A stretch of 64,000 nucleotides of DNA from a bacterium (GTDB taxonomy: Bacteria; Fidelibacterota; UBA2242), in the NCBI GenBank assembly GCA_018824205.1, contig JAHJGX010000058.1, positions 54,366 through 118,365 of the forward strand. Reading direction: 5' to 3'. The notes below the pieces were generated by a model, which worked only from the letters and a program-made list of their open reading frames with translations, had not been told where the DNA came from and did no database searches. The stretch's first letter is position 1, and every line of letters begins with the position of its first letter. A program made the translations under genes and the position numbers. Shown piece after piece: positions 4,054-63,543 of the stretch.

Positions 4054-4064
4054 TCTCCTTTTGC

Positions 4065-39528: not shown

Positions 39529-39536
39529 TTTTAACA

Positions 39537-48598: not shown

Positions 48599-48757
48599 AT
48601 GGTTCATCGTAAATGCCCCCGTTGCGGGGCGCAGCAGTTTCGCAAAGTGCGCCGCAAACGCTGGATGTGTTATCTGCCCTTTTCAAGCTGCTGGGAATGT
48701 TACTGTAAATTTCTGCTGGTGTTTGGGATTATTGTCTGGCGGCACAATTATACCTGA
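48599..48757 (+). CDS. possible small Cys-rich zinc-ribbon/TM protein (52 aa: MVHRKCPRCGAQQFRKVRRKRWMCYLPFSSCWECYCKFLLVFGIIVWRHNYT)
   Basis: Alternative frame to the ORF-track 48573-48782 ORF. CPRCG...C..C.C arrangement plus a hydrophobic tail. GGAGGGG lies 5 nt upstream. Confidence 0.2.
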   Translation: MVHRKCPRCGAQQFRKVRRKRWMCYLPFSSCWECYCKFLLVFGIIVWRHNYT

Positions 48758-49300
48758 TGCCGGGATTTTGGAAACACCGTAATGTGACGGAAATTACAGA
48801 TATTGGTACTGAACATTTGGAAAGAATCTAACTATGCGCGGGGAGACTGTTTAATTAATATGAAGAAGATATTGGAATTGTTTATTTTACTTAGCAATGC
48901 CGGCGATTTATTGCCGCTACTATAGTCTTCGTAAATAGTGCAAATATTATTGCGAAAACCGCATATTATTAGTAACATAAGCACAGATTGTAGAGACTTG
49001 AAACGGGATTCATTTATTGATATTTTTTTTACTCCGATCTAATATAAATTATTGAAGATTCCCTTTGGGATATGACGAAAAAGATTTGGACATTCGGTAA
49101 AATCGCGGCATTGAATAACGCCTTTAACGGAGATGTATTATCAGGTGATTTTTATCACTGGATTTAAATAAAAATAAGTAGAAATTATAGGTTCTACAAT
49201 TTGCCCGCTCAGCCCATGTAGCTGAGGGGGCGAAGCCCTGCCCCGGCGGATGCAATTCCCCGGCCGGAAAAATGCGTAAGTAATTAATAATAGGAAAGAT

Positions 49301-50437
49301 ATGAAAGTACCCCTGCTGGATCTGAAAGCGCAACTGGACACAATCCGCGAAGACGTGAAAGAAGTTGTCAACGAGGTTCTGGAGTCCACCCGCTATATCA
49401 TGGGGTCCAAGGTTACGGAGCTGGAAGAACAGATTGCGGCCTATTGCGGCGCCCGCTACGGGATCGGCGTATCTTCAGGGACCGATGCGCTGCTGATCGC
49501 CCTGATGGCCCTGGATCTGCAACCCGGTGACCTGGTTCTCACCACACCCTACTCTTTTTTCGCCACCGCCGGCGTCGTCTCCCGGCTGAATGCCATTCCC
49601 GTCTTTGTGGATATTGATCCCGGAACCTATAATATCGATCCCGGGCAGATAGCCCAATGGTTTGCCGACAATCCGGATAAAATTGAGCGGGTCAAGGCCA
49701 TTATTCCCGTGCATCTCTACGGCCAGTGCGCCGATATGGACCCGATTCTGGAACTGGCCGAAACATATAATATTCCCGTCATTGAAGACGCGGCCCAGGC
49801 CATCGGCGCCGGATATCCTTCTAAGAATGGATTGAAACGGGCCGGATCCATGGGTAGCATGGGCTGTTTTTCCTTTTTCCCCAGTAAGAACCTGGGGGGG
49901 ATCGGTGACGGCGGCATGGTGACCACCAACGATGCGGCCCTGGCGGAAAAACTGGTCAAACTCCGCAACCACGGTTCCCATCCCAAGTATTACCACGCTC
50001 TAATCGGCGGCAATTTCCGCCTGGACCCGATTCAGGCGGCGGTCCTGTCGGTAAAATTAAAACACCTGGATGCCTGGCATGCCGGGCGGCAGGCCAATGC
50101 GGCCTATTACGATGCGCATCTGAATGTCCCGGGACTGACAAAACCGATGGTTGCCTATCAGCGGGACTACCATATTTACAACCAGTATATTCTGTCAGTG
50201 CCGGAACGCCGGGACGCCCTGGTGGAATACCTGCATGCCCGGGACATTGGGTGTGAAGTCTACTACCCGGTGCCCTTTCATCAGCAGGAATGTTTTCAGT
50301 ACCTGGGCTATAAAACCGGGGATTTCCCCCATAGTGAATTCGCCGCTGAGCATACCATCGCCCTGCCTATCTATCCGGAACTGACCGATATGATGCAGCA
50401 GTATGTGATTGAAAAGATTCAAGAATTTTATCAATAG
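49301..50437 (+). CDS. DegT/DnrJ/EryC1/StrS family PLP-dependent sugar aminotransferase (WbpE-like)
   Basis: N-terminal IPFLDLKAQ-like start, conserved Lys region and sugar aminotransferase fold. 378 aa. Confidence 0.9.
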   Translation: MKVPLLDLKAQLDTIREDVKEVVNEVLESTRYIMGSKVTELEEQIAAYCGARYGIGVSSGTDALLIALMALDLQPGDLVLTTPYSFFATAGVVSRLNAIPVFVDIDPGTYNIDPGQIAQWFADNPDKIERVKAIIPVHLYGQCADMDPILELAETYNIPVIEDAAQAIGAGYPSKNGLKRAGSMGSMGCFSFFPSKNLGGIGDGGMVTTNDAALAEKLVKLRNHGSHPKYYHALIGGNFRLDPIQAAVLSVKLKHLDAWHAGRQANAAYYDAHLNVPGLTKPMVAYQRDYHIYNQYILSVPERRDALVEYLHARDIGCEVYYPVPFHQQECFQYLGYKTGDFPHSEFAAEHTIALPIYPELTDMMQQYVIEKIQEFYQ

Positions 50438-50518
50438 AGGGCTGATATTTTTGCATCAACATCAGCCATGTCTGGGGCAACAAAAAATTAGCTCAAAAAA
50501 ATAAAATAGAAGGCGCGC

Positions 50519-50743
50519 ATGGAAAAAATCATCAAAATCCATATTGAGCAATTACCGGAAGGCCTGTTTCTCGCAACGTCTGATGAGATTCAGGGCCTGG
50601 TGGCACAGGGTCGTACAATTAATGAAACTCTGGAAATTGCTCGGGATGTGGCCAAAAAATTATTGGAAGCTCAATCAGATTTATCGGAAACATTAACGAT
50701 TTTGAAAAAACCGATCGATATGTCAATCGTATTGGGCATCTGA
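50519..50743 (+). CDS. hicB: HicB family antitoxin (type II TA)
   Basis: 74 aa UPF0150/HicB-like N-terminal domain (IKIHIEQLPEGLFLATSDEIQGLVAQGRTINETLEIA). Confidence 0.6.
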   Translation: MEKIIKIHIEQLPEGLFLATSDEIQGLVAQGRTINETLEIARDVAKKLLEAQSDLSETLTILKKPIDMSIVLGI

Positions 50744-50968
50744 ATGGGAAGACTGGCAAATCACTCTTACCGGAAAGTCGTCGAGAAATTAAAGAAATTA
50801 GGATTTCAATTCTATCGCCAGGCTGCCGGCAGCCACGAAATCTGATTTAATCCCAATAGCAATCGATACACTACGATCCCAAATCACCCTGGCGATATAC
50901 CCGAAGGAACAATTAGGGCTATCTTAAAACAAGCACAAATATCTATCGAGAAATTCCTTAAAACCTGA
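50744..50968 (+). pseudogene. hicA: HicA family mRNA-interferase toxin gene interrupted by an in-frame TGA at 50843-50845. N-terminal 33 aa, then 40 more codons in the same frame.
   Basis: MGRLANHSYRKVVEKLKKLGFQFYRQAAGSHEI-TGA-FNPNSNRYTTIPNHPGDIPEGTIRAILKQAQI... matches HicA on both sides of the stop. Starts 1 nt after the hicB stop. Confidence 0.55.
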
Positions 50969-51053
50969 ATAGTATAAACAGTATTATCCAAATCCGAACA
51001 GACAAGCATCACTTAGATTTAATAGCATTTAAGCAATAAAAATCTGGTTTATT

Positions 51054-51647
51054 ATGAGTATAAAAAAAGATTTCTTTGTTCACGAATCTGCCTATGTGGA
51101 TGATAATGTGACGATCGGCGCGGGGACCAAAATCTGGCACTTTTCCCACATTCAGTCAGGTTCGAAAATCGGCCGGAAGGTCTCCATTGGCCAGAATGTC
51201 AATGTGGGCAATAATGTGAGAATTGGTAATTTTGTGAAGATTCAGAACAATGTCTCGGTCTACGAAGGGGTGACCCTGGAGGATTATGTCTTCTGCGGCC
51301 CCTCCATGGTATTTACCAACGTGATCGATCCCCGCTGCAAATATCCCCAGCGGGGGGCGGAATTTTACCACAAGACCCTGGTGAAAACCGGGGCCTCCAT
51401 CGGTGCCAATGCCACGATCGTTTGCGGCAATATCGTTGGACGGCATGCCTTTATCGGCGCCGGGGCGGTGGTAACCAAAGATGTACCCGATTACGCCCTG
51501 ATGCTGGGAGTGCCAGCGAAACGGGTCGGCTGGGCCTGCGAGTGCGGTGAAATTTTACCGAAGTTTGACCAGCACGTGAACTGTCCACGCTGCGGGATAA
51601 CGTATAAGTTACAGGGAGAAATTCTTATCGCAAAGAGCGCAGAGTAG
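51054..51647 (+). CDS. hexapeptide-repeat sugar N-acetyltransferase (WbpD-like UDP-2-acetamido-3-amino-2,3-dideoxy-uronate N-acetyltransferase family)
   Basis: Left-handed beta-helix hexapeptide repeats (IGxxxxI) throughout, 197 aa. Confidence 0.85.
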   Translation: MSIKKDFFVHESAYVDDNVTIGAGTKIWHFSHIQSGSKIGRKVSIGQNVNVGNNVRIGNFVKIQNNVSVYEGVTLEDYVFCGPSMVFTNVIDPRCKYPQRGAEFYHKTLVKTGASIGANATIVCGNIVGRHAFIGAGAVVTKDVPDYALMLGVPAKRVGWACECGEILPKFDQHVNCPRCGITYKLQGEILIAKSAE

Positions 51648-51670
51648 GCAAAAAACGCAAATCACGATGA

Positions 51671-51726
51671 GATTATTAAATAACTTCGCGGATATTGGAA
51701 CCTTAGCGACCTCTGAGAGGTAAAAA
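51671..51726 (+). repeat. repeat family A, copy 1. Upstream leader element containing the palindromic core ACCTCTGAGAGGT.
   Basis: 19/21 identity with 54396-54416 (aaccttagcgacctctgagag vs aaccttggcgacctctgcgag) plus flanking similarity. Immediately precedes a start codon. Confidence 0.5.
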
Positions 51727-52107
51727 ATGCATGAAAATGAGATATCTAAAATCATTCTCGATTGTGCATTTAAAATCCATACAGACCTTGGTCTTGGATT
51801 ATTTGAATCAGGATATGAGGAAATTTTATATAACGAGCTTGCTAACAAGCAGCTTATCATTGAACGTAAGAAGGTGCTTGCCATTCAATATGGTGGAATT
51901 TAAGTCGAAAATGCGTTTCGGATTGATTTAGTTGTAAATAATAAAGTGATTGTTGAAAAAAAATCAATAGAATCCATTTTACCAGTGCCTAAAAAGCAGT
52001 TATTGACGTATCTTAAATTGTCGGACTTGAAGCTGGGCCTATTAATTAATTTTAATGAAGCCTTCCTGAAAAACGGTATTACAATAATAGTCAATAATCT
52101 GACGTAG
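51727..52107 (+). pseudogene. GxxExxY family protein gene with an in-frame TAA at 51901-51903
   Basis: MHENEISKIILDCAFKIHTDLGLGLFESGYEE...AIQYGGI-TAA-VENAFRIDLVVNNKVIVEKKSIESILPVPKKQLLTYLKLSDLKLGLLINFN. Full-length GxxExxY homology across the stop. Confidence 0.6.
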
Positions 52108-52144
52108 CGAACTTTGTTAACATTGCGTACTTTGCGAAAGATAT

Positions 52145-52237
52145 TATGAAAAACATAGCCCTTATCGGCTGCGGGTGGATTGCCGGGAAACACCTGGAAT
52201 CCATTGCCCCGTTACAGCCTGAAGAGCGCGGACTTTA
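52145..52237 (+). pseudogene. 5' fragment (30 codons) of a Gfo/Idh/MocA oxidoreductase gene paralogous to the 53121 gene
   Basis: MKNIALIGCGWIAGKHLESIAPLQPEERGL* versus MKTIALLGCGRISGKHLESIAQL at 53121. A 27-nt identical stretch (ccgggaaacacctggaatccattgccc) is present. Confidence 0.5.
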
Positions 52238-52290
52238 GCTCGCTCCGGCGGGAAGAAGCCAAAACAGTGCTTTTTGAAACGAACAAAAAG

Positions 52291-52584
52291 ATGATCAACC
52301 GTTATCTCAACGAAATCCGAAAAATAATCGAGAAAGAAATGCAGGATGAAAATGTTGCCATAGCACTTTTTGGCTCTTTTGCCATGGGCACTCAGCAGCT
52401 TGCATCGGATATTGATATTGCACTGATTCCCAAAGGGAAATTGAATAAATCCAAAGTTGCCGATTTACGGGAAAAACTGACCGAACTCACGGTTCCTTAT
52501 TCCGTCGACCTGGTTGATTTTGACCGGGTCTCAGAACAATTCAAGAAAATAGCGTTAAGAGACGCCCAATGGTGGAGGAAGTAG
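52291..52584 (+). CDS. nucleotidyltransferase (MNT-type antitoxin, Pol-beta superfamily)
   Basis: GSxxxG...DxD motif (FGSFAMGTQQLASDIDIAL). The start was reset to MINRY (ATG 52291). Overlaps the downstream HEPN gene. Confidence 0.7.
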   Translation: MINRYLNEIRKIIEKEMQDENVAIALFGSFAMGTQQLASDIDIALIPKGKLNKSKVADLREKLTELTVPYSVDLVDFDRVSEQFKKIALRDAQWWRK

Positions 52585-52973
52585 CCGTGCAGATTATTGT
52601 TGAAAAATTGAAGCAGGCCAAAAATGCGCTGATCACTCTTGAAGAAGCATTGAATGCGGATTTCTCTCGGTTTGTTCAGGATGCTGCCATCCGGCGGTTT
52701 GAATATACCGTGGAAGCGGTCTGGAAGCTGTTGCAGGTCTATCTGAAAGAATCGGAAGGGTTAATCTGTGCTTCGCCTAAATCTGCTCTACGGGACGCCA
52801 AAAAAGTCGGTTTGTTAAATGATTCCGAGACCGAGCGGGCATTAGAAATGATCGATGACCGCAATTTAACATCCCATACGTATCACGCGGAAATTGCGCA
52901 GGCTCTGTTTAAACGCTTAGCTTCCTACTCAGAACTGATGAAACATGTTCTAGAAAGAATTGAGAAAAGCTAA
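52569..52973 (+). CDS. HI0074-family nucleotidyltransferase substrate-binding protein (HEPN/HepT-like toxin component)
   Basis: 134 aa all-alpha protein of the HI0074 type. 16-nt overlap with the MNT gene. Confidence 0.65.
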   Translation: MVEEVAVQIIVEKLKQAKNALITLEEALNADFSRFVQDAAIRRFEYTVEAVWKLLQVYLKESEGLICASPKSALRDAKKVGLLNDSETERALEMIDDRNLTSHTYHAEIAQALFKRLASYSELMKHVLERIEKS

Positions 52974-53120
52974 AACCGCTGGAACTGAGCGGAGCCTGTT
53001 TTCTCAATTGAAACCATTTATATGATTATGTAACTGTCAATGCGACATCGTATAATCGGGTCCAATCCAGTCAGAAATTACCAAGCAAGCATCATCCAAC
53101 TTTATAGACGAGATTAATTC

Positions 53121-54149
53121 ATGAAAACCATTGCCCTACTCGGTTGCGGGCGGATATCCGGGAAACACCTGGAATCCATTGCCCAACTGAAAGACGATTT
53201 GAAACTGGTGGCCGTCTGTGATATTCTCGCAGACCGGGCCCAAGCCGCCGGTGAGAAATACGGGGTCAACTGGTACACCGATTACGATCAGATGCTGGAA
53301 CGGGAGGATCTGGACATCCTGTCCATTTGCACCCCCAGCGGCGTGCATCACCGGCACGGGGTTGCGGCGGCCAAACGGGGTCTGCATGTGATCGTGGAAA
53401 AGCCCATGGCGATTACCCTGGAAGCCGCGGACCAACTGATCCAGGCCTGTGACAAGGCCAAAGTGGAACTGTTCGTGGTGAAACAGAACCGCCTGAACAC
53501 CACCCTGCAGATGCTGAAGCGGGCCGTGGACAAGGGGCGTTTCGGCAAGATCTATATCGCCCAGTCCAACGTCTTCTGGCAACGGCCGCAGAGCTATTAC
53601 GATCTGGCCAAATGGCGGGGGACCTGGGAGTTTGACGGCGGTTCTTTTATGAATCAGGCCAGCCACTACGTGGATGCAATCCAGTGGCTGATCGGTCCTG
53701 TGGAGTATGTCATGGCGGAAACCGCCACCATGGCCCGGCAGATTGAGACCGAAGACACCGGCTCGGCGATCCTGAAATTCCGCAATGGGGTGATCGGGAC
53801 CATCAATGTGACCATGCTGACCTATCCCAAAAACTTCGAGGGTTCGATTACGATCCTCGGGGAGAAGGGCACCGCCAAGGTGGGGGGCGTTGCGGTCAAC
53901 CATATCGATAAATGGGAATTCGAGGATTACGACGACGATGACCGCCTGATCGAGGAATCCAACTACAATCCCCCCAATATTTACGGACTGGGGCACCTGC
54001 CCTATTATAAAAATGTGATCGCCACGCTGAAGGGTGATTCCGATGCCGATACCGACGGCCGCAGCGGGCGCAAGAGTCTGGAATTGATTATCGCGATTTA
54101 CAAATCCGCCCAGCTGGGCAAAAAGATTGCCCTGCCATTGAAGTTATAG
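53121..54149 (+). CDS. Gfo/Idh/MocA family NAD-dependent oxidoreductase (WbpB-like UDP-GlcNAcA 3-dehydrogenase candidate)
   Basis: Rossmann GxGxxG (LLGCGRISGKH) and a C-terminal Gfo/Idh/MocA domain, 342 aa. Confidence 0.85.
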   Translation: MKTIALLGCGRISGKHLESIAQLKDDLKLVAVCDILADRAQAAGEKYGVNWYTDYDQMLEREDLDILSICTPSGVHHRHGVAAAKRGLHVIVEKPMAITLEAADQLIQACDKAKVELFVVKQNRLNTTLQMLKRAVDKGRFGKIYIAQSNVFWQRPQSYYDLAKWRGTWEFDGGSFMNQASHYVDAIQWLIGPVEYVMAETATMARQIETEDTGSAILKFRNGVIGTINVTMLTYPKNFEGSITILGEKGTAKVGGVAVNHIDKWEFEDYDDDDRLIEESNYNPPNIYGLGHLPYYKNVIATLKGDSDADTDGRSGRKSLELIIAIYKSAQLGKKIALPLKL

Positions 54150-54192
54150 AAAATTCTCGCAAAGACGCGGAAGTGACGGAGGACGCAGATTA

Positions 54193-54312
54193 AATGAAAT
54201 TTCAAAGATTATCCTGGTTGCCGCGAAGAAAATTTCTATCGATTTGGGACCGGGATTATTTGAATCTGTTTACGAAGAATTACTAGAGTATCGATTAAGA
54301 CAAATAAATTGA
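54193..54312 (+). pseudogene. N-terminal fragment (39 codons, no start codon) of a GxxExxY family gene
   Basis: NEISKIILVAAKKISIDLGPGLFESVYEELLEYRLRQIN* matches the conserved GxxExxY N-terminus (GxxExxY = GLFESVY). Confidence 0.4.
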
Positions 54313-54364
54313 AAGAGATATTTCTCCAGAAGGACCCAGAAAAGTTAGAGAGTGCTAATAAAAT

Positions 54365-54432
54365 GATAATTTTAAATGACTTTGCGGACTTAAAAACCTT
54401 GGCGACCTCTGCGAGAAATCAAAAGGGAATTT
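54365..54432 (+). repeat. repeat family A, copy 2, immediately upstream of the nucleotide-sugar dehydrogenase start
   Basis: See copy 1. gataattttaaatgactttgcggacttaaaaaccttggcgacctctgcgag. Confidence 0.5.
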
Positions 54433-55731
54433 ATGAAGGATATTAAAATCTGTACTATTGGATTGGGTTATGTGGGTCTGCCCCTGGCGGTGGAATTTGC
54501 CAAGAAACTGCCGGTGATCGGTTTTGATATTAACCGGGGCCGGATCGATGACCTGAACGAAGGCCATGACGCCACCCTGGAAGTGGCCGATGACAACCTG
54601 AAGTCGGTGCTGGTGACGGAAATCGGGAACTGGAGCCGGGACAGAGGCCTGTATTTGACAGATCAGTTGGATGAAATTCGGGACTGTAACTATTATATTG
54701 TTACGGTACCGACCCCCATCGATAAGTACAAACGCCCGGACCTGAGCCCCCTGATTAAGGCCTCGGGCACCGTGGGCAAAGTCCTGAAACCCGGGGATAT
54801 CGTGATCTATGAATCTACGGTCTATCCCGGGGCGACGGAAGAGGACTGCGTACCGATCCTGGAAGAGGCCAGCGGATTGAAATTCAATGTGGATTTCTTC
54901 TGCGGGTTTTCCCCGGAGCGCATTAATCCCGGCGACAAAGAACATACCTTTCTCACAATCAAAAAAGTAACCTCGGGATCAACCCCGGAGGTGGCTAAAA
55001 AGGTCGATGACCTGTACAATTTGGTTGTCAAGAACGGCACCCATCGGGCGTCGTCCATTAAAGTGGCCGAAGCCGCCAAGGTGATCGAAAACTCCCAACG
55101 GGACCTGAATATCGCCTTTGTCAACGAACTGGCCAAAATCTTTAATATCATGGGCATCGATACTCTGGAAGTACTCGAGGCCGCCGGCAGTAAGTGGAAT
55201 TTTTTACCCTTTCGTCCGGGGCTGGTGGGGGGGCACTGCATCGGTGTGGACCCCTATTACCTGACCCACAAAGCCCAGGAGATCGGCTACCATCCCGAAG
55301 TGATCCTGGCGGGCCGCCGGATCAATGACTCCATGGGGAATTATGTGGCCGGGGAAGTGGTCAAACTGATGATCAAAAAAGGCCACACTATCGCGAAATC
55401 CAAAGTCCTGGTCCTGGGTATTACCTTTAAGGAAAACTGCCCCGATATCCGGAATTCCCGGGTGATTGATGTCATCCATGAACTGGAAGAGTTTGGCTGC
55501 GATGTGGATGTCTATGACCCCTGGGCCGGCCCCGCAGAGGTTCAGGCGGAATACGGGGTTGAACTCATTCGAAATGAAACATTTAACAGTAAAAAAACAA
55601 ATTATGACGCGGTTGTCCTGGCCGTGGCCCATCACCAGTTCCAGACCATGGACCTGCATCAGTTTGGCAACGGCAACTGTGTTCTCTATGATGTCAAGGG
55701 GATTGCCAAAGATGCGGATGGGCGCTTATAG
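54433..55731 (+). CDS. nucleotide-sugar dehydrogenase (UDP-glucose/GDP-mannose dehydrogenase family; WbpA/TviB-like UDP-GlcNAc 6-dehydrogenase candidate)
   Basis: N-terminal Rossmann fold IGLGYVGLPLA, a catalytic Cys region and a C-terminal UDPG_MGDP_dh domain. 432 aa. Confidence 0.9.
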   Translation: MKDIKICTIGLGYVGLPLAVEFAKKLPVIGFDINRGRIDDLNEGHDATLEVADDNLKSVLVTEIGNWSRDRGLYLTDQLDEIRDCNYYIVTVPTPIDKYKRPDLSPLIKASGTVGKVLKPGDIVIYESTVYPGATEEDCVPILEEASGLKFNVDFFCGFSPERINPGDKEHTFLTIKKVTSGSTPEVAKKVDDLYNLVVKNGTHRASSIKVAEAAKVIENSQRDLNIAFVNELAKIFNIMGIDTLEVLEAAGSKWNFLPFRPGLVGGHCIGVDPYYLTHKAQEIGYHPEVILAGRRINDSMGNYVAGEVVKLMIKKGHTIAKSKVLVLGITFKENCPDIRNSRVIDVIHELEEFGCDVDVYDPWAGPAEVQAEYGVELIRNETFNSKKTNYDAVVLAVAHHQFQTMDLHQFGNGNCVLYDVKGIAKDADGRL

Positions 55732-55785
55732 TGAGCCAATGAGCATGAGAATTAATAAACGGTCTTGTTGTTGGTCTAACATTCA

Positions 55786-56355
55786 ATGAACAGATCTGAA
55801 AATCCATTAGTCGCGGCGTTGCGGACCATTGTCCGCTGGCTGGATAATGAGAAGATTGATTATATGGTTTTTGGGGGGATTGCCAACAGTATATACGGAA
55901 ACCCGCGCCAGACATTTGATATTGATGTAAAAATTATTTTAGAACCGCAAACAGTGAGTACTCCTTTTATTAAAGCGATCCAAAGGATTGCGGAGATTCT
56001 GCCGGCCGATCCGGCAGCGTTTCTCGCTGAGACCCATGTCTTGCCGGTGCGGGTGGGGGGCGTCCCGGTGGATATTGTCCTGGCCGAGTTATCTTATGAA
56101 ACCGATGCGATTCGTCGGGCGCTAACGCTTGAGTATGCCGGGATCGCGTTCAGAGTGTGCACTCCTGAGGATTTGATCATTCAAAAAGCTGTTTCTGAAC
56201 GTCGTAAAGATTGGGATGATATTGAGATTATCATCCAGCGCCAGTCCGCCAATTTAGACCGGGACTATTTGCTGAAACATTGTCGGGACTTAAGCGATTT
56301 TTTGGAGCGCCCGGACATTTTCAATAGGGTGCAGAGTTTGCTCAATGAGGCCTGA
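55786..56355 (+). CDS. putative nucleotidyltransferase-fold protein (Pol-beta-like GG...DIDV motif)
   Basis: MVFGGIANSIYGNPRQTFDIDVKI resembles an NTase GS/GG-x9-13-DxD core. 189 aa. Confidence 0.4.
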   Translation: MNRSENPLVAALRTIVRWLDNEKIDYMVFGGIANSIYGNPRQTFDIDVKIILEPQTVSTPFIKAIQRIAEILPADPAAFLAETHVLPVRVGGVPVDIVLAELSYETDAIRRALTLEYAGIAFRVCTPEDLIIQKAVSERRKDWDDIEIIIQRQSANLDRDYLLKHCRDLSDFLERPDIFNRVQSLLNEA

Positions 56356-56620
56356 ATATCAGGAAAATTTGAAACGCATGACCCGCTTCAATGAATGGGA
56401 GGAGCGCTCGCGCAGTCAATTGACGGTGCAAGCCAAACTCGATCAGTTTCTGGTCCTCTATGGACTCTGGGATTTCGTTCCGGAAAATATCCGGGAAAAA
56501 GTCCACGCTGAACATGTGGCGGCCCTCTGCCGGGTCCAAAAACGTCTGAAGGAAGCCGGTGAATTGCGAAAATTCAATAAGCAATTAAATCAGGAAAACA
56601 AGCAAAGGGAAATGAAGTGA
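56345..56620 (+). CDS. hypothetical small protein (91 aa) overlapping the upstream NTase-like gene by 11 nt
   Basis: ORF with charged helical character, translationally coupled to 55786-56355 and to gmd. Confidence 0.3.
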
Positions 56621-57657
56621 AAAAAGCGCTTATTACCGGTATCACCGGTCAGGACGGCTCCTACCTTACCGAGTTATTGCTTGAAAAAGACTATGAAGTC
56701 CATGGCATTATCCGCCGCAGCAGTTCCTTTAATACCGGTCGAATCGACCACCTATTCAATAATCCGGAAATTTACGGTAAAAAACTGTTCCTGCATTATG
56801 GAGATCTGACAGATTCCAGTAATTTGAACCGTCTGCTGGATAAAACCGAACCCGACGAGATTTATAACCTCGGCGCCCAGAGCCATGTGTTGGTATCTTT
56901 TGAAGTCCCTGAATATACGGCCGAAGTTGACGGTGTCGGGGTTTTACGTTTTCTTGATGCCATTAAAGAAGGCGGACTCAGGACCAGATTCTATCAAGCC
57001 TCCACCAGTGAACAGTTCGGTAAGGTTCAGGAAATACCCCAGACCGAAACAACACCCTTTTATCCCCGATCGCCCTACGGGGTTGCCAAACTCTATGCCT
57101 ATTGGATTGTTAAAAACTATCGGGAAGCCTATAATTTATTTGCCTGTAACGGTATTTTATTTAACCACGAATCTCCCCGCCGGGGTGAGACATTTGTGAC
57201 CCGGAAAATAACCCGCGCAGCCGCTCGCATAAAAGCCGGATTACAGGATAAACTGTTACTGGGCAATCTGGATGCCAAACGGGATTGGGGCTATGCCCCT
57301 GAATATGTGGGAGCCATGTGGCGGATGCTCCAGCAGGATCAGCCGGAAGATTTTGTGATTGCCACCGGTGAAACGCATTCGGTCCGGGAATTTTGTCTGA
57401 ACGCCTTTGCCGAACTCGGGATGAACATTCATTGGCAGGGCCAGGGTGTCGCCGAAAAGGGGATTGACTCGAAAACCAGCAAGACACTGATCGAAATTAA
57501 TCCCCGCTACTTCAGACCCACAGAGGTGGATCTGTTGATTGGTGATTATAGCAAAGCCAAAGAAAAACTGGGCTGGCAGCCGACTATGAAATTCGAAGAG
57601 TTAGCCCGCATGATGGCTCGCAGCGACTACGAAAAAGTGTTGAAAAGAGGATTCTGA
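56617..57657 (+). CDS. gmd: GDP-mannose 4,6-dehydratase
   Basis: N-terminal [19 protein letters not shown] and SDR YxxxK catalytic motifs. GTG start overlaps the upstream stop. Confidence 0.95.
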
Positions 57658-57773
57658 ACTACTAATTACGCTAATTTCACTAAAAATATGTATAATAAAA
57701 ACAATTCGCGTAAATCCGTGTAATTCGTAGTTATAAAACTATTAAAGTAATCCGTGTAATTCGTAGTTTAAAA
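57656..57773 (+). repeat. repeat family B, copy 1 (includes an internal tandem duplication of the 3' core aatccgtgtaattcgtagtt)
   Basis: aactactaattacgctaatttcactaaaaa...aattcgcgtaaatccgtgtaattcgtagtt is shared with copy 2 almost base for base. Confidence 0.6.
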
Positions 57774-58154
57774 ATGGAAAATTTGGTATTCAAAGAAGAG
57801 AGTTTTAAAATAATCGGCGCCTGTATGGAAGTGCATAAAGTGCTCGGTCCCGGCTTTTTAGAATCCGTTTACCAGGAGGCATTAGCCATTGAATTCAGTC
57901 ATCAGGGAATTCCCTTCGAACAAGAAAAAGAATTAACAATTACTTTCAAAGGTATTGAACTTGAAAAAAAATATAATGCTGATTTTGTATGTTACGGAAA
58001 AATAATCCTCGAAACGAAGGCTGTAAAAGAACTATGCGATAATCACCGAGCGCAGATCATAAATTACCTCAAAGTCACAAAATTCAAACTCGGTTTACTC
58101 GTTAACTTTGGAGAACAATCCTTAAAATATGAACGCTTTATCAATGAAAAATAA
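57774..58154 (+). CDS. GxxExxY family protein (intact copy)
   Basis: 126 aa: ...KIIGACMEVHKVLGPGFLESVYQEAL...AQIINYLKVTKFKLGLLVNF. Confidence 0.7.
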   Translation: MENLVFKEESFKIIGACMEVHKVLGPGFLESVYQEALAIEFSHQGIPFEQEKELTITFKGIELEKKYNADFVCYGKIILETKAVKELCDNHRAQIINYLKVTKFKLGLLVNFGEQSLKYERFINEK

Positions 58155-58157
58155 TCA

Positions 58158-58245
58158 AACTACTAATTACGCTAATTTCACTAAAAAAAAGAATAATAAA
58201 GATAATTCGCGTAAATCCGTGTAATTCGTAGTTAAAAGGATTTAT
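58158..58245 (+). repeat. repeat family B, copy 2
   Basis: aaactactaattacgctaatttcactaaaaaaaagaataataaagataattcgcgtaaatccgtgtaattcgtagttaaaagg. Confidence 0.6.
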
Positions 58246-58435
58246 ATGAAGAAAGCACTCATCACCCCGATACGCTTCGTTACTGGGCAGGCGCTTCGCC
58301 TCCCCCTATCCCATTATGCTCATTCTTCGCTACGGGACAGGCAGGGCAAGACCGCATCATCTGCCGGACTAGTTCCTTTAACACTGGCAGAAGCGATTAT
58401 ATTTTCACAATCAATAATTATCAAGGATAACCAAC

Positions 58436-58729
58436 ATGAACAAGGATGAAATAATTCAGATTTTAAAAGAAAATAAAAAGGTCATGACTGATCAGTACGG
58501 TATAATCCAAATCGGTATTTTCGGCAGCTATGTACACAGCCTACAAAATGAGGGAAGCGATATCGATATCGCAATAGAAATGACCAAAGAAAAAAAGAAT
58601 CTCCACAATTTCCTGGCTCTAAAACGATTCCTGGAACAACAACTGGGGAGAAATGTTGACCTGGGTTTTAAGCACTCCCTAAAACCGACAGTTAGCAATT
58701 ATATTGAAGCAACCATAATATATGTCTGA
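58436..58729 (+). CDS. nucleotidyltransferase (MNT-type antitoxin)
   Basis: GS-x10-DID motif (FGSYVHSLQNEGSDIDIAI), 97 aa. Confidence 0.7.
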   Translation: MNKDEIIQILKENKKVMTDQYGIIQIGIFGSYVHSLQNEGSDIDIAIEMTKEKKNLHNFLALKRFLEQQLGRNVDLGFKHSLKPTVSNYIEATIIYV

Positions 58730-59069
58730 TATATCTAAGAAAGATCAATTATATCTGGATGATATTCTTGAATCGGCGCAAGCAATTCAAGGATATGTTG
58801 AAAACATTGATTTGCTAACTTTTATTAAAGACCGAAAAACATATTCTGCTACTATCCGTGAGTTTCAGATAATTGGCGAAGCTGTCAATAATCTTTCTGA
58901 CGATATTAAGAGCAACTACCCGAAAACAGCGTGGCAGGATATTAAAGATTTTCGGAATATTTTAATTCATGAATACTTTGGAATTGATCTGGAACTTGTC
59001 TGGAATGTTATTCAGGAAGATCTGCCTGAATTAATCAATATTGCTAAAGAGATAAAAAAGAGCCTTTGA
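58722..59069 (+). CDS. HepT-like HEPN toxin (DUF86 family)
   Basis: R-x4-6-H HEPN motif (RNILIHEY) near the C-terminus. 8-nt overlap with the MNT gene. Confidence 0.7.
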   Translation: MSDISKKDQLYLDDILESAQAIQGYVENIDLLTFIKDRKTYSATIREFQIIGEAVNNLSDDIKSNYPKTAWQDIKDFRNILIHEYFGIDLELVWNVIQEDLPELINIAKEIKKSL

Positions 59070-59179
59070 CAAAGATTTTTTCTTCCTCGCCACGCCCGCC
59101 CAGAATTATCTCTCGCCCGCCTGACTTCGTCTTTCGGGCAGGCAGAGTCCGCAAAGCAGAAAGTTAGTAAGTAGGATGG

Positions 59180-59293
59180 TTTAAACTACTAATTTCGCAG
59201 ATTAAGCGAATTAAGAAAAATAAAAATTAGTGTAATCCGTGTAATTCGTAGTTAAAAAATCTCTGTATAATTCGTAGTTAAAAGGTTCTTCTT
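59180..59293 (+). repeat. repeat family B, copy 3 (divergent 5' part, tandem core copy)
   Basis: tttaaactactaatttcgc...gtaatccgtgtaattcgtagttaaaaaatctctgtataattcgtagttaaaagg directly upstream of fcl. Confidence 0.55.
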
Positions 59294-60256
59294 ATGGAAA
59301 AGAATTCCAAGATTTACATCGCCGGTAATACCGGTCTGGTGGGATCCGCTTTAGTCCGTAAATTCACCTCCGAGGGCTACACCAACCTCGTTTTCACTCC
59401 CTATCCCGAATATGATCTCCGCAAGCAGCCACAGACGACTGATTTTTTCGAACGTGAAAAACCGGAATATGTCATCATTGCGGCTGGCAAGGTGGGTGGG
59501 ATTATCGCCAATAACAGCTATCGCGCCGAATTCATTTACGATAATATTATGATCGCATCCAATATCATTCATGCGGCCTATCTAAGCAAAGTAAAACAAT
59601 TAATTTTTCTGGGCAGTTCCTGTATCTATCCGAAAAATTGTCCGCAGCCGATGAAAGAAGAATATCTGCTGACGGGCCCCCTGGAACCGACCAATGAGCC
59701 CTATGGGATTGCGAAAATTGCCGGTATCAAGCTCTGTGAAAGTTATTACCGCCAGTACGGCTGCAATTTCTATTCAGTCATGCCCACGAATCTGTATGGC
59801 CCTAACGATAACTTCGATTTGGAAACGTCCCATGTTCTGCCGGCCTTAGTCAGGAAATTTCATGAAGCCAAAATAAAAAATAATAAGGAAGTTACTATCT
59901 GGGGGACCGGCCAGCCCCGGAGGGAATTTCTGCATGTTGATGATCTGGCTGATGCCATTCTATTTCTATGTTTAAACATCAATTCGGAAGAGATATTTAA
60001 ACAGGGCATTAGTCATCTGAATATTGGATCCGGCGAAGAAATATCCATATCTAAATTAGCAGAATTGATTAAAAAAACAGTGGGGTTTACTGGTCAAATC
60101 CAATTTGATGAATCAAAGCCCGATGGAATGCTCAGAAAATTGTTATCAAGCGCACGATTAAACGAACTTGGCTGGGAAAAAACGATTACAATGGAAGTCG
60201 GAATTTTAAAATTATATGAATGGTATTTAAAGAGTTCCCAGAACCGACATTCTTGA
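59294..60256 (+). CDS. fcl: GDP-L-fucose synthase (GDP-4-keto-6-deoxy-D-mannose 3,5-epimerase/4-reductase)
   Basis: N-terminal IYIAGNTGLVGSAL, SDR-fold catalytic Y...K, 320 aa. Paired with gmd. Confidence 0.9.
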   Translation: MEKNSKIYIAGNTGLVGSALVRKFTSEGYTNLVFTPYPEYDLRKQPQTTDFFEREKPEYVIIAAGKVGGIIANNSYRAEFIYDNIMIASNIIHAAYLSKVKQLIFLGSSCIYPKNCPQPMKEEYLLTGPLEPTNEPYGIAKIAGIKLCESYYRQYGCNFYSVMPTNLYGPNDNFDLETSHVLPALVRKFHEAKIKNNKEVTIWGTGQPRREFLHVDDLADAILFLCLNINSEEIFKQGISHLNIGSGEEISISKLAELIKKTVGFTGQIQFDESKPDGMLRKLLSSARLNELGWEKTITMEVGILKLYEWYLKSSQNRHS

Positions 60257-60418
60257 TCTGTGCCGGCAATGAACGGGAAAATGAACCCAAAGGTTTTCAA
60301 TGGCGCCTGTGAATTGCGAAAATTCAATCAATAAGTCATTCAATCGGGTAAACACCACAATGGCATTATCAAGGACAAGCCAGATGAACAAGAATGAAAT
60401 CATGGATGTGTTAATTTC

Positions 60419-61372
60419 ATGAAAGTCATCGAATTTTTAAATAAAGCCAAAGATCCGCTGATCAGCTTTGAGATCATTCCCCCGGACCGCGGCCGGAGTG
60501 CCGACGTGATCTATCGGATCGTGGAAGAGCTGATGGTTTTCAAGCCGCCCTTTATCGATGTGACCAGTCACGCTGCCGATGCGAAATACGTGGAGCAGGC
60601 GGACGGCAGTTTCAGCCGTAAAATTACCCGCAAGCGGCCGGGCACCATCGGGCTGTCGGCCGCCATTAAGTACCGCTACAAAGTGGAGACCGTGGTGCAC
60701 CTGCTCTGTACCGGCTTTACCCGGGAAGAGACCGAAGACGCCCTGGTGGAACTGAATTACCTGGGTATTGAAAATGTCATGGCCCTGCGCGGTGATATCA
60801 GCGATTACAAGAAATCCATCCAGCCGAACCGCACGGTAAACGCCTATGCCGTGGACCTGGTCAGCCAGATCAGCCATATGAATCAAGGGCTCTTTCTGGA
60901 TGACGAACTGGAGGCCGATCGGACGGATTTCTGCATTGGTGTGGCCGCGTACCCCGAAAAGCATGATGAAGCCCCCAGCCTGGACGCCGACATCCGCTAC
61001 CTGAAACAAAAAGTCGATACAGGCGCGGATTACATTGTGACCCAGATGATCTTTGATAACCGGAAATATTTTCACTTCGTGGAACTATGCCGGGCCGCCG
61101 GGATTCAGGTACCCATCATTCCGGGGATCAAACTGCTGACGAGCCGCAATCATTTGAGCTCCTTGCCGCGGCATTTCAATGTCAGTTTTCCCGATGATCT
61201 GGTCCGGAATGTACTGGATGCCAAAGACGATGCAGAGGTAAAAGAGATCGGCGGCGCCTTTGCCCGGAAGCAGGTGGAAGAGTTGCTGAACGCCAAAGTC
61301 CCCTGTATCCATTTTTACGTCATGCAGCAGGCCAAGACGGTCAAGAAACTGATTCAAGGGCTGGGGATTTAA
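60419..61372 (+). CDS. metF: methylenetetrahydrofolate reductase
   Basis: MetF fold features (SFEIIPP, FAD-binding region), 317 aa. Confidence 0.8.
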   Translation: MKVIEFLNKAKDPLISFEIIPPDRGRSADVIYRIVEELMVFKPPFIDVTSHAADAKYVEQADGSFSRKITRKRPGTIGLSAAIKYRYKVETVVHLLCTGFTREETEDALVELNYLGIENVMALRGDISDYKKSIQPNRTVNAYAVDLVSQISHMNQGLFLDDELEADRTDFCIGVAAYPEKHDEAPSLDADIRYLKQKVDTGADYIVTQMIFDNRKYFHFVELCRAAGIQVPIIPGIKLLTSRNHLSSLPRHFNVSFPDDLVRNVLDAKDDAEVKEIGGAFARKQVEELLNAKVPCIHFYVMQQAKTVKKLIQGLGI

Positions 61373-61424
61373 TAAAGACTAACTAAGTTCTAATTATCCA
61401 TTACCTTTTCATGAAAAATGAACA

Positions 61425-61796
61425 ATGCTTTTATTAATCGATAAAAAAATAGATACCATAACGATCCTGAAATTATGCCAGGCCCATTTTGGTAATTTCA
61501 TTAAGTTTGTGGCTGATATTGACCGGAAGGTAATCGCCGCTGGCGGTGAGATGCATGCCGATGCAGAAGTATTACTATTAAATAATGGGTCAAAACAGGT
61601 ATCCTTGTGGGGCGCCAACCTGTATCCTGAGAATGAACCGGAAAAACGGATTGAATTTGAATCCTTTATCAATATCCGTCCATTGGACGATAATATGGCG
61701 CTGACAGTTCAGAATGCGGAAATCCGGCATAAAATAAAAAACCTTGTCGAGGCTCTGTTATTATCTCCTGAAGAGCTTATTCAACTTGAGGATTAA
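61425..61796 (+). CDS. DUF5674-like protein
   Basis: 123 aa. The pattern ...HFGNFIKFVADIDRKVIAAGGEMHADAEVLLLNNGSKQVSLWGANLYPE resembles the DUF5674 family. Confidence 0.4.
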   Translation: MLLLIDKKIDTITILKLCQAHFGNFIKFVADIDRKVIAAGGEMHADAEVLLLNNGSKQVSLWGANLYPENEPEKRIEFESFINIRPLDDNMALTVQNAEIRHKIKNLVEALLLSPEELIQLED

Positions 61797-62164
61797 TGCC
61801 CATTTATCATAAAACATTGCAGGATCGATTTGGCACATTTCCCCAAGCGCAACAGATATTAATGATCTGCAATGAATTGAACCGGGCCGGGACCCAGGCA
61901 GAAAGATTTGACTATTACCAACATCATATAATCCTGGCTATGGAGCTGCTGGATTTTTTAATACGTGACCAAAAGTGGGCACCCAAATATAGAGAAATTT
62001 TGAGAGCCCGGGAAATGCTGGGGCAGTATTACTTGTCTTCGGATAAGGATCTGAAAAAATATACTGATAATCTTATTAAATTGTCTCCGGAAGCCTTCCG
62101 GATGCTGAAACCAAGCAAGCCAATAGAGATAATTTCAGGAGCAATTCAGGCAGACAAAACTTAG
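61796..62164 (+). CDS. hypothetical protein (122 aa)
   Basis: ORF translationally coupled to the upstream gene (ATGCCC overlap at 61796). No recognizable motif. Confidence 0.35.
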   Translation: MPIYHKTLQDRFGTFPQAQQILMICNELNRAGTQAERFDYYQHHIILAMELLDFLIRDQKWAPKYREILRAREMLGQYYLSSDKDLKKYTDNLIKLSPEAFRMLKPSKPIEIISGAIQADKT

Positions 62165-62174
62165 TGGAATCTTC

Positions 62175-63539
62175 ATGCAAAACCACATAACTGAAATTAT
62201 CAATAACGGGGAAGATCAACAGTCAGAGTTTAAGCCGAACTTCAGTAAGGAACTTATTGAAACTGTGGGTGCATTTTCTAATTCAAGGGGCGGGAAAATT
62301 CTCGTTGGTGTTAACGACTCCGGGCAAATAACGGGCGTCAACGCAAATGAAGAAATTATCAAAGACTGGATGAACAACATTAAGTTGGATACCCAACCCC
62401 AGTTGTTTCCCTCAATGAACCTCATTGACGTTGATAATAAGACGGTTGTTGAAATTTCGGTGCCGGAATATCCTCTCAAACCAGTATCATACAAGGGACG
62501 GTATTATAATAGAACGGGTGCGTCTAACCATCTGGTTCCATTGAATGAAATTGTGGAAATGCAATTGAATAGCCTCAACAGCTCTTTTGATTCCTTTCCG
62601 GTTTCTGAATCGATTGATGATCTTTTACCCGATGTTATCGTATCCTACTTTCGCGAGGTGAAAAACAGGGGACGTATTGAATTGTCCGATAACAATCGGT
62701 TAAATCTTGAAAAAACGGGATTTATTCGGAAGGGTAAAATATCATTTGCAGCTCTATTGATGTTTGGAGAACACCATATGGGGATTCATATTGGTCGCTT
62801 TAAAACTCCCGATGTGATCATTGATGATATTTTGATTAAATCACCGCTGGTGAATGCAATTAATGATGCAATGAGCTTTATTAAGAAAAACATTAGTGTC
62901 GCTTTTGAGTTTACAAACGATACCCGTAGAGTTGAAAAATGGCAATATCCGTTGCCGGTAATTAGAGAATTATTATTAAATGCCGTGATTCACAAAGATT
63001 ACCGTAATCCAACCGATATCATCATTAAAATTTATGATCACAAAATTGAGATTACGAATCCCGGTAGCCTGATGGGTGGGTTAACGCCTGAAGATTTACA
63101 GACCGATCATTATATTGCCGTTCATAGAAACAAACTTCTGGCTGAAGCTTTCTATCTGCGAGGTGATGTTGAGAAATATGGAACCGGGTTTATTCGAATC
63201 AGGGAGTTTCTGCGCGATTGTCCAGAAGTAACGCTAGACGTAAATCCGCAGGGGGATTTTATCCGGACAATATTAGCTGATAAAAAGCTTACCCCGCATG
63301 ATACCCCGCAAGTTGAAAAACTTATAGCGGTCATGCTTGGATCGATGAAACGGGATGAGTTGCAGAACAAATTAGAATTAGCAGATCGTGAATATTTTAG
63401 AAAATATTATTTGATACCTGCTCTGAATTCCGGGTTGATAGAGATGACAATTCCGGGCAAACCTAAGAGTAAAAACCAGAAATACAGACTGACGGATAGC
63501 GGTAAACTGATACTGGAAATGAACAGGAATAGTGGATAA
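62175..63539 (+). CDS. AlbA_2 (Schlafen-like divergent AAA) domain + HATPase_c_4 domain protein. Putative ATP-binding transcriptional regulator / RecG-C-terminal-like.
   Basis: N-terminal AlbA_2 signature (EDQQSEFKPNFS...ETVGAFSNSRGGKILVGVND) and a C-terminal HATPase-like region (LLLNAVIHKDY...GTGF). 454 aa. Confidence 0.6.
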   Translation: MQNHITEIINNGEDQQSEFKPNFSKELIETVGAFSNSRGGKILVGVNDSGQITGVNANEEIIKDWMNNIKLDTQPQLFPSMNLIDVDNKTVVEISVPEYPLKPVSYKGRYYNRTGASNHLVPLNEIVEMQLNSLNSSFDSFPVSESIDDLLPDVIVSYFREVKNRGRIELSDNNRLNLEKTGFIRKGKISFAALLMFGEHHMGIHIGRFKTPDVIIDDILIKSPLVNAINDAMSFIKKNISVAFEFTNDTRRVEKWQYPLPVIRELLLNAVIHKDYRNPTDIIIKIYDHKIEITNPGSLMGGLTPEDLQTDHYIAVHRNKLLAEAFYLRGDVEKYGTGFIRIREFLRDCPEVTLDVNPQGDFIRTILADKKLTPHDTPQVEKLIAVMLGSMKRDELQNKLELADREYFRKYYLIPALNSGLIEMTIPGKPKSKNQKYRLTDSGKLILEMNRNSG

Positions 63540-63543
63540 GCAG

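Follow-up and report, generated by a model that had tools for sequence, protein, structure and literature searches.

Toxin–antitoxin pairs, GxxExxY genes and sugar-gene remnants in a probably mosaic polysaccharide operon of an uncultivated Fidelibacterota bacterium

How do addiction modules come to lie between the genes of a polysaccharide operon, each of them directly behind what looks like the beginning of one of those genes? The question is raised by a 64,000-nucleotide stretch from an uncultivated bacterium (GTDB lineage Fidelibacterota; UBA2242; GenBank assembly GCA_018824205.1, contig JAHJGX010000058.1, positions 54,366–118,365 of the forward strand), which we refer to in its entirety as the window. 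The segment from 49 to 61.4 kb is one single-strand operon (Pfam/NCBIfam annotation) in which wbpE, wbpD, wbpB and wbpA lead to a UDP-diacetamido-uronic acid, gmd and fcl lead to GDP-fucose, and metF follows fcl; it is a surface-polysaccharide operon of a Marinimicrobia-like uncultivated bacterium. Small cassettes, all on the operon strand, fill nearly every intergenic gap. They include genes of the GxxExxY family and two toxin–antitoxin (TA) pairs, MNT1-HEPN1 between wbpD and wbpB and MNT2-HepT2 between gmd and fcl, with a 5' gene remnant to the left of each pair (wbpB' and gmd', respectively). We conclude that this is probably a mosaic polysaccharide locus colonised by addiction and defence modules, and that the remnants are probably recombination scars from other alleles or copies of the sugar genes, with no integron-type machinery found among the genes tested. 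Related contigs are designated below by L numbers.

An earlier note on this DNA had picked out a wbpB-like 5' remnant with a 27-nt identity to the intact gene at 53121, directly upstream of an MNT/HI0074 pair (52291–52973) and followed by the full wbpB gene. This arrangement is confirmed by alignment and by Pfam/NCBIfam annotation, with the open reading frame (ORF) one base off, at 52146–52238, where it reads MKNIALIGCGWIAGKHLESIAPLQPEERGL. Positions 52146–52209 and 53121–53184 are identical at 56 of 64 nt (88%), including all of the final 27 nt, and 26 aa of the two proteins align (tblastn E 4e-6, within the window); the homology is clear over 64 nt and may, if an indel is allowed, reach ~85 nt. 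The likeness begins precisely at the ATG, and the two upstream leaders are unrelated. wbpB' is about equally far (83–89% identity) from all close wbpB alleles, and its codon 3, AAC, is common to the outgroups L129 and L130. The L112 copy of wbpB' has lost its stop codon and has one altered Cys codon, as would be expected of a pseudogene. The 27-nt identical stretch (TCCGGGAAACACCTGGAATCCAT...) is kept in all close wbpB alleles (L112, L121, L114 and L128), and we therefore rejected it as a gene-conversion or exchange point and regard it as a locally conserved segment. The start of MNT1 is itself variable: its frame can be read from as far upstream as a TTG at 52180 (52180–52584), within wbpB', and it is annotated as 81, 97 or 126 aa in different metagenome-assembled genomes (MAGs). 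In L112 (3588–3968) the ATG used in the window has mutated to ATACTC, and another ATG lies farther upstream.

The wbpD–wbpB junction exists in five states among the window and its relatives. In L128, wbpD overlaps wbpB; in L129 (GCA_964605705.1), which is also without gmd-fcl, 123 nt separate them; in L130 and L131 (a Marinimicrobia MAG with the same upstream synteny) the order is wbpD, GxxExxY, wbpB; in L121–L127 it is CMD gene, MNT, HEPN, wbpB, lacking the remnant and with another gene on the left; and the window and L112 share wbpD, the GxxExxY-1 pseudogene, wbpB', MNT, HEPN and wbpB. The GxxExxY–spacer–wbpB start of L130 is colinear with GxxExxY-1, its spacer and wbpB' in the window. Homology between the window and L121 begins at 52271, 20 nt 5' of MNT1, and the TA-wbpB unit differs by 11% between the two. 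L128 is a mosaic, its left part being 97% identical to L112 and its right part 97.4% to L114 but only 85–90% to L112.

Because wbpD-GxxExxY-wbpB is intact in the Marinimicrobia MAG and the TA-wbpB unit occurs elsewhere without the fragment, we interpret the remnants as recombination scars. Each would be the stump of another wbpB or gmd allele or copy that once lay 3' of a GxxExxY gene, and the stump would have been joined to a TA-carrying segment that supplied its own complete gene. The proposal that the remnants are duplicates of the resident genes made by the insertions themselves is not supported, as the fragments are 12–28% diverged and look like other alleles or copies. The refuting condition set in the note, relatives with remnants but no TA cassettes, turned out the other way round: L121 has the TA pair and no remnant, and L128 and L129 have neither. 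Cassette-free syntenic loci are available for both sites (L128 and L129 for wbpD–wbpB; L112 and L113–L116 for gmd–fcl), and the suggestion of repeated insertion or recombination is borne out: TA and GxxExxY cassettes are absent from otherwise syntenic relatives, and the locus has recombined repeatedly.

The second TA pair lies within a block of 1,636 bp between gmd and fcl (57658–59293), which contains in order a palindromic repeat (R), GxxExxY-2, R, gmd', MNT2-HepT2 and R. L112 is 96–97% identical to the window over 48604–64000 and colinear with it except for a step from 57645 to 59294, where the end of gmd and the beginning of fcl overlap (TAATG); the two genes also overlap (TGATG) in L113–L116, which are 84–89% identical. 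The block is absent from all of these contigs, and we therefore consider it a gain. Mismatches between the window and L112 cluster at its edges. In gmd there are none in nt 863–1001, and 13 of the gene's 47 fall in the last 40 nt (binomial p 1.6e-8). Over the last 45 nt, 40 positions agree with L092, a relative of 78% identity that has gmd-R-GxxExxY-2, and 32 with L112; the gmd C-terminus is RGF as in the ≤88% clade, whereas the close clade has RGY. In fcl, 30 of 45 mismatches are in the first 114 nt (p 9e-18), a segment 74% identical to both L112 and L113, and nt 115–940 are 98% identical to L112. The crossovers are placed within the 3' end of gmd and 114–192 nt into fcl. Foreign tracts thus abut the insert in both flanking genes on a background of 97–98% identity, which is the pattern of allelic replacement by homologous recombination, and they show that the block arrived in this way together with ~40 nt of foreign gmd and ~114 nt of foreign fcl. 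Relative to the clean, compact operon of close relatives the cassettes are probably gains, and what carries them from one lineage to another, at least in the case of the gmd–fcl block, is ordinary homologous recombination in the conserved sugar genes on either side. Another cluster of 13 mismatches in 79 nt relative to L112, at gmd nt 570–648 (57186–57264), suggests a further small recombination patch.

The gmd–fcl gap is filled differently in other relatives. L092 has gmd, R, GxxExxY-2, HicBA and then tandem copies of a GxxExxY 3' stump with R; L117–L120 have an IVP four-helix-bundle gene in the gap; and L136–L138 have GxxExxY together with defence-like genes. In L110 (Ga0210017_1005199, 300–5800), RelE/ParE, AbiEi/AbiEii and MazF-type cassettes, AAA ATPases and a truncated GxxExxY lie among gmd and fcl fragments. 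These fragments comprise gmd residues ~64–145, gmd ~27–83 fused to the fcl C-terminus, and another fcl C-terminal piece, an array more extremely scarred than the window.

The ORF at 58246 that begins MKKALIT had been taken for a gmd start placed before the second MNT/HepT pair (58436–59069), and this too is real. Its first codons (58246–58266) are identical to the resident gmd at 16 of 21 nt and to the gmd start of L117 at 19 of 21, and a second, frame-shifted piece at 58356–58406 reads IICRTSSFNTGRSDYIF and matches gmd residues 31–47. From these alignments, gmd' is a decayed gmd 5' pseudogene of ~160 nt (58246–~58410) and more than seven codons; for wbpB' and gmd' alike, the similarity reaches beyond the first codons. 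In L136, R lies directly 5' of an intact gmd, and this R with the gmd start aligns to R2 and gmd'. By analogy with L136, a plausible route to gmd' would be unequal crossing-over between R copies of an R-gmd-R-GxxExxY-R array, followed by decay.

Both TA pairs are intact and encoded on the same strand, with MNT preceding an overlapping HEPN gene. Pfam matches are well above threshold (score/cut-off: NTP_transf_2 45.7/21, Polbeta 53.9/26.9, HepT-like 101.5/23.5, NTase_sub_bind 94.2/31.8), as is TIGR01987 (75.6/55.8). The MNT motif GS..DxD can be read in the translations as FGS..SDIDIA and the HEPN motif Rx4H as RNLTSH and RNILIH, and MNT2 matches the PADLOC candidate system PDC-S09 (E 1.9e-29). 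The NCBIfam equivalogs are missed at their cut-off of 60 bits (MntA 51.8 and 42.2, HepT 45.6 and 28.3), and by these scores the pairs are family-level, not equivalog-level, members of MntA/HepT. In characterised type VII systems the HepT RNase is restrained by MNT-catalysed nucleotidylylation, and HepT here would by analogy be an RNase kept in check in the same manner. From what is known of these families, addiction or defence probably keeps the pairs in place until they decay. The hicA gene (50744–50968) of the HicBA cassette has an in-frame TGA at 50843–50845 (GSHEI, then stop); only hicB is called in L112 and L128 as well, so HicA appears to have died first, before the lineages split. Decay of cargo after fixation is shown by the stumps, by the dead GxxExxY-1 and by HicA, which is dead although its partner HicB is live.

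Several points weigh against a mosaic locus assembled by ordinary recombination. No donor genome with the exact block was found, and plasmid and phage searches with the 1.6-kb block gave no match. The direction of each event, as gain or loss, depends on parsimony across MAG contigs. The sequence would fit illegitimate end-joining, Campbell-type circle integration or unequal crossing-over between R copies equally well, and TA cassette 1, given the 64-nt direct repeat on its two sides, is also compatible with an insertion that duplicated a long target, the copies then diverging by ~12%, a divergence about as old as the TA-wbpB unit. The screen for tyrosine recombinases or integrases, in which none was found, took in ten window ORFs of 261–524 aa and the annotated genes of 43–64 kb, only part of the ORFs of the 64-kb window. 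Finally, several cassettes have R repeats at their boundaries, so a site-directed process is conceivable.

Long target duplication is an unlikely explanation. It supposes that MNT1-HEPN1 inserted into the first 64–85 nt of wbpB and that the duplicated copies have since diverged. TA cassette 1 is indeed flanked by a 64-nt direct repeat, which is single-copy at the cassette-free sites of L128, L129 and L130; no transposase or integrase lies alongside it; addiction-module insertions with repeats of >30 bp are documented (PMC2853133); and the 12% divergence of the repeat is close to the 11% of the TA-wbpB unit in the window and L121, so an old event would be self-consistent. However, the published repeats are near-identical (43–47 of 46–47 nt; PMC2853133) and these match at 56 of 64 nt, the TA-wbpB unit of L121–L127 has no upstream repeat and a different left neighbour, and wbpB' keeps outgroup states, such as the AAC codon shared with L129 and L130. 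Nor does gmd' fit: no duplication of the gmd–fcl target accompanies the insert, and the piece derives from the end of gmd remote from the junction.

The repeats and the GxxExxY genes that they bound bear on the remaining alternatives. R is a palindrome of ~80 nt with arms AACTACTAATTACGC and GTGTAATTCGTAGTT, and occurs nowhere else in the 64 kb than at the three positions in the gmd–fcl block. R1 and R2 flank GxxExxY-2 as a direct repeat with 93% identity. At both gmd' and fcl, AAAAGG stands between R and the start codon, and R2 supplies gmd' with this leader. R folds as a hairpin of 14–15 bp on either strand and has no Rfam family match. Across contigs (L136, L092, L110 and L089–L111 as well as the window) the family is 70–115 nt long with a shared inner box (NAATTNC...GNAATTN), and its outer 6-bp stems covary between variants (AACTAC/GTAGTT, GTCCGC/GCGGAC and GTCCAC/GTGGAC). 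At least 12 copies are present in 9 kb of L136 (1–8967), where they bound every gene including gmd. The R core 20-mer is found in 23 metagenome contigs, many with tandem GTAATYCGT-type 9-mers; most of the others have no recognisable cassette genes nearby and show only that the motif is widespread. R is absent from TA cassette 1, HicBA and DUF2204, and no target-site duplication was recognised for it. A second repeat, U, is the 3' flank or leader of GxxExxY-1-type genes (..TTTGCGTNCTTT..CCTTAGCGAGA..ATG); the copies at 51667–51719 (U) and 54363–54415 (U') are 77% identical, and the same motif follows GxxExxY genes in L092 and L130. These repeats preserve one part of the idea that exchange takes place at conserved leaders and first codons, in that leader-like R and U sequences bound the GxxExxY cassettes; the other part fails, as the wbpB' leader is unrelated and the gmd–fcl crossovers are inside the genes.

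One of the three GxxExxY genes in the window is intact (GxxExxY-2) and two are dead. GxxExxY-1 has an in-frame TAA at 51901–51903, across which a single-frame tblastn alignment to GxxExxY-2 continues, and the fragment noted previously at 54193 is genuine (54193–54285; 31 aa, 74% identical to GxxExxY-1 at 51727). The family (TIGR04256/Pfam PDDEXK_3) is matched above its cut-off with conserved PD-(D/E)XK catalytic residues, and a GxxExxY-2 structure predicted with an alignment (pLDDT 95; the single-sequence prediction, at pLDDT 48, was unusable) takes the fold of a minimal Cas4/RecB-like PD-(D/E)XK nuclease, its D70/E80/K82 triad conserved. Its closest folds are exonuclease or processing nucleases, and a PDB sequence search gave no match. 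The family is very large and patchy (~18,570 representatives at 50% identity), and its members lie co-oriented beside sugar genes in unrelated phyla. Cassettes are co-oriented with the operon in all cases in the window and its relatives. In a scan of a genome collection with wbpA, for which the best matches are ~70% identical, come from many phyla and include no close relatives, GxxExxY, IVP or HEPN genes adjoin wbpA in 11 of 80 loci, and 14 of the 15 matches in these unrelated loci are co-oriented.

These features raise the possibility of homing-like spread, in which GxxExxY cuts empty sites at an R or U leader or an R cruciform, repair off a filled allele copies the cassette and adjoining sequence with short co-conversion tracts, and the TA pairs hitch-hike. 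Both remnants and both kinds of leader repeat directly adjoin GxxExxY genes, the predicted nuclease fold and its D-E-K triad would suit such a role, the donor tracts (~40 and ~114 nt) are short as in co-conversion, and the family is large, patchy and co-oriented beside sugar genes. We nevertheless consider this quite unlikely: the function of GxxExxY is listed as unknown (PMC3424549), the closest folds are not known homing endonucleases, two of the three copies in the window are dead, and ordinary recombination also yields short tracts. A broader version, which we offer as a quite unlikely speculation, is that the R and U leaders and GxxExxY form an undescribed integrase-free cassette system of FCB-group bacteria, analogous to the integron and operating by nuclease-initiated, co-directional insertion at hairpins. 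GxxExxY, IVP genes, TA pairs, defence ATPases and even gmd would then be set off from one another by covarying hairpins, each bearing the ribosome-binding leader for the gene that follows, and MNT-HepT and the stumps would be cargo or by-products.

Integron-like capture, to which the earlier note had likened this arrangement, is very improbable, whether the R hairpins or the leaders with first codons are cast as attC-like sites at which a dedicated recombinase would place promoterless cassettes in the operon. The cassettes are small, co-oriented and often TA modules, and R, an imperfect palindrome of 70–115 nt with covarying outer stems, bounds GxxExxY-2, gmd'-MNT2-HepT2 and every gene of the 9-kb array in L136. 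Read from the sequences, however, R has neither the 7-bp R''/R' boxes of attC (RYYYAAC/GTTRRRY) nor a central spacer: its AAC...GTT are the outermost pairs of a continuous 15-bp stem with unpaired flanking bases, and R' is GTTAAAA or GTTATAA. No tyrosine recombinase is present among the ORFs tested or the annotated genes of 43–64 kb, TA cassette 1, HicBA and DUF2204 are without R, and the cassettes are spread over separate gaps of an operon of housekeeping type instead of forming one array at an attI site. The gmd–fcl block, moreover, entered its lineage with flanking homologous tracts.

The repeats also affect assembly. Eight contigs, from ENA, Logan and NCBI MAGs (among them GCA_018822525.1 and GCA_018817605.1), encode an identical wbpB protein and share one layout at >99.7% identity. 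Most same-species contigs end within R3 or R1, and contigs with an identical fcl start at window position 59083. In sample ERZ928008 two contigs overlap by exactly 127 nt, the k-mer length of the assembler, which confirms the R3–fcl linkage of the window; branching of the assembly graph at R3 hints at variants in the population. A chimeric assembly across repeats, or remnants that serve as upstream ORFs or leader peptides coupling translation into the TA genes, is scarcely credible. In favour of these readings, R3 and R1 are break points of assemblies, wbpB' forms an open ORF that has a start codon of its own, and the gmd' ORF extends 14 nt into MNT2. Against them, the stretch from gmd to HepT2 is present at >99.7% identity in seven contigs of independent samples, the 127-nt overlap links R3 to fcl, the donor tract in fcl ties that gene to the block, wbpB' has lost its stop and altered a Cys codon in L112, and gmd' is frame-shifted.

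Features of the polysaccharide operon and its cassettes, with window coordinates
Feature	Coordinates	Strand	Basis
degT/wbpE aminotransferase	49301–50437	+	Pfam/NCBIfam
HicB antitoxin (50519–50743, intact) and HicA pseudogene; decayed TA cassette between degT/wbpE and wbpD	50519–50968	+	Pfam DUF1902, HicA_toxin
wbpD-like acetyltransferase	51054–51647	+	Pfam/NCBIfam
U leader repeat 5' of GxxExxY-1	51667–51719	+	Repeat search
GxxExxY-1 pseudogene (PD-(D/E)XK_3)	51727–52107	+	Pfam on both halves
wbpB' remnant, 5' fragment of a wbpB allele, pseudogene scar	52146–52230	+	Alignment; colinear with GxxExxY–spacer–wbpB start of L130
TA cassette 1: MNT1 (52291–52584) and HI0074-family HEPN (52569–52973), 16-nt overlap	52271–52973	+	Pfam/NCBIfam; left edge from L121 homology
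wbpB-like GFO/IDH/MocA oxidoreductase, intact	53121–54149	+	Pfam
wbpB–wbpA insert: GxxExxY-3' 5' fragment (54193–54285) and U' (54363–54415); none in L114, L128	54158–54439	+	
TviB/wbpA-like UDP-GlcNAc 6-dehydrogenase	54433–55731	+	Pfam/NCBIfam
Solo DUF2204 nucleotidyltransferase insert (ORF 55786–56355), exactly between wbpA and orf91	55735–56341	+	Pfam; junction comparison
gmd, GDP-mannose 4,6-dehydratase; donor-type tract 57618–57657 (last ~40 nt)	56617–57657	+	Pfam; mismatch clustering
Inserted block, 1,636 bp, gmd stop to fcl start	57658–59293	+	Absent from L112, L113–L116
R1 palindromic hairpin repeat (57657–57736) and partial second copy	57657–57770	+	Repeat search, folding
GxxExxY-2, intact	57774–58154	+	
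R2, direct repeat of R1 (93% identical)	58158–58237	+	Repeat search
gmd' remnant, decayed frame-shifted 5' fragment of an R-preceded gmd	58246–58410	+	Alignments; R and gmd start of L136 align to R2 and gmd'
TA cassette 2: MNT2 (58436–58729) and HepT2 (58722–59069), 8-nt overlap	58417–59069	+	Pfam/NCBIfam; PADLOC; left edge from likeness to 60365 remnant
R3 (59184–59286) and partial copy R3b; ends in AAAAGGTTCTTCTT right before fcl ATG	59184–59293	+	
fcl, GDP-fucose synthase; first ~114 nt donor-type tract	59294–60256	+	Pfam; mismatch clustering
Two scars between fcl and metF: orf91-3'-end-like (60286–60352), MNT2-like leader and first 10 codons (60365–60414)	60286–60414	+	Repeat search

The other gaps of the operon vary in the same manner. 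L113–L116 have no DUF2204 gene, wbpB and wbpA are 18 nt apart in L114 and L128, and the fcl–metF spacer is 53 nt in L113 and L114 versus 162 nt in the window; L114 matches 60309–60352 at 86%, the fragment 60286–60352 resembles the orf91 3' end and spacer, and the MNT2-like scar (60365–60414) immediately precedes metF. The sequence right after the wbpA stop, GCCAATGAGCATGAGAATTAAT, resembles the orf91 start region TCAATGAGGCCTGAATATCAGG (55732–55790 and 56335–56365), which directly follows wbpA in relatives; it may be a short duplicated start from the DUF2204 insertion, the match being too short for certainty. In L129 (8765–11490) the order is wbpA, IVP pseudogene, metF, and since gmd and fcl are absent from this syntenic contig the orf91-gmd-fcl module may itself be an insertion. 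The orf91-3'-like fragment at 60286–60352 would fit a flanking repeat of such a module. Genes for 23S_rRNA_IVP proteins (four-helix-bundle, bAvd-like) occupy the gmd–fcl, wbpB–wbpA and wbpA–metF gaps of relatives (L117 3578–4080; L130 9100–9950 and 11200–11340; L129 10043–10536, with an in-frame stop in L129), flanked by inverted repeats or by long GGAAACC/CAGGCAA-type simple-repeat runs.

A promoter and terminator scan found no enrichment of terminator-like sites and one hairpin 3' of HEPN1, and is uninformative for this phylum; an Rfam scan of 49–62 kb gave nothing relevant, the lone match being a chance one to a snoRNA (E 0.9). Other genes of the window are of housekeeping type (HtrA-like protease, BatA/B, GcvT and Lnt). 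An N6/N4 DNA methylase gene followed by an unannotated ORF of 327 aa (38743–40520) is possibly a restriction–modification (R-M) pair. A protein with SLFN_AlbA_2, HATPase_c_4 and Fic-like_C domains (62175–63539) has weak PADLOC matches to pAgo-associated proteins, and this gene varies among relatives, L113 having a 462-aa ORF without a Pfam match at that position.

The locus provides a natural example of addiction and defence modules entering and spreading through an essential-looking operon, apparently without mobile-element machinery, via recombination in conserved neighbours; the modules lie exactly between genes in the direction of the operon, and its relatives form a graded series (empty, filled, differently filled and decayed) from which the order of events can be read. 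There are practical consequences, in that scars create spurious ORFs (of 30 aa, of 67 aa, and an N-terminally extended MNT) and the repeats break metagenome assemblies at the locus. Possibly the more valuable lead is the association of the huge Cas4-like GxxExxY family and IVP genes with sugar genes, co-directional and flanked by covarying palindromes.

As a kind, the locus is known biology, documented here in an uncultivated lineage whose empty, filled and decayed states are unusually clear; the R/GxxExxY idea is its only potentially new element and is unproven. Like chromosomal integron arrays, including CALINs, it has small co-oriented cassettes, many of them TA modules, and imperfect palindromes of 70–115 nt conserved within a lineage, but here no IntI was found among the ORFs tested, the attC box geometry is lacking, the cassettes are dispersed in operon gaps, and entry is by flanking homology. 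As with REP/BIME or MITE-like repeats, R is non-coding, palindromic and multicopy and lies between genes of the same direction as well as where recombination has joined sequences, although there is no RAYT or transposase nearby, no target-site duplication was seen, and R carries the ribosome-binding leader of the downstream gene. Inverted-repeat arms enclose GxxExxY-2 and the IVP genes of relatives, as they do the ORFs of 23S rRNA intervening sequences. With the long target duplications of R-M systems (Nobusato/Furuta/Kobayashi; PMC2853133), TA cassette 1 shares the lack of a transposase or integrase and a direct repeat of >30 bp that is single-copy where the insert is lacking; it differs in that the repeat is 88% identical, the L121 unit is without it, and the gmd' case has no target duplication.

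The TA pairs resemble type VII MntA-HepT in their overlapping MNT-HEPN order, their GS..DxD and Rx4H motifs, their Pfam domains above threshold and the PDC-S09 match of MNT2, and differ in that both are below the equivalog cut-offs and pair 1 is of HI0074 type. A literature search found no description of GxxExxY, PDDEXK_3 or TA cassettes within O-antigen operons. The mosaic O-antigen and capsule clusters are alike in using genes such as gmd, fcl and wbpB as homology arms, in the presence or absence of whole blocks between close genomes, and in the foreign tracts and truncated remnants at the joints. Unlike in those clusters, the cargo here is not serotype-determining glycosyltransferases but addiction and defence modules and small nuclease genes, set co-oriented between the biosynthesis genes.

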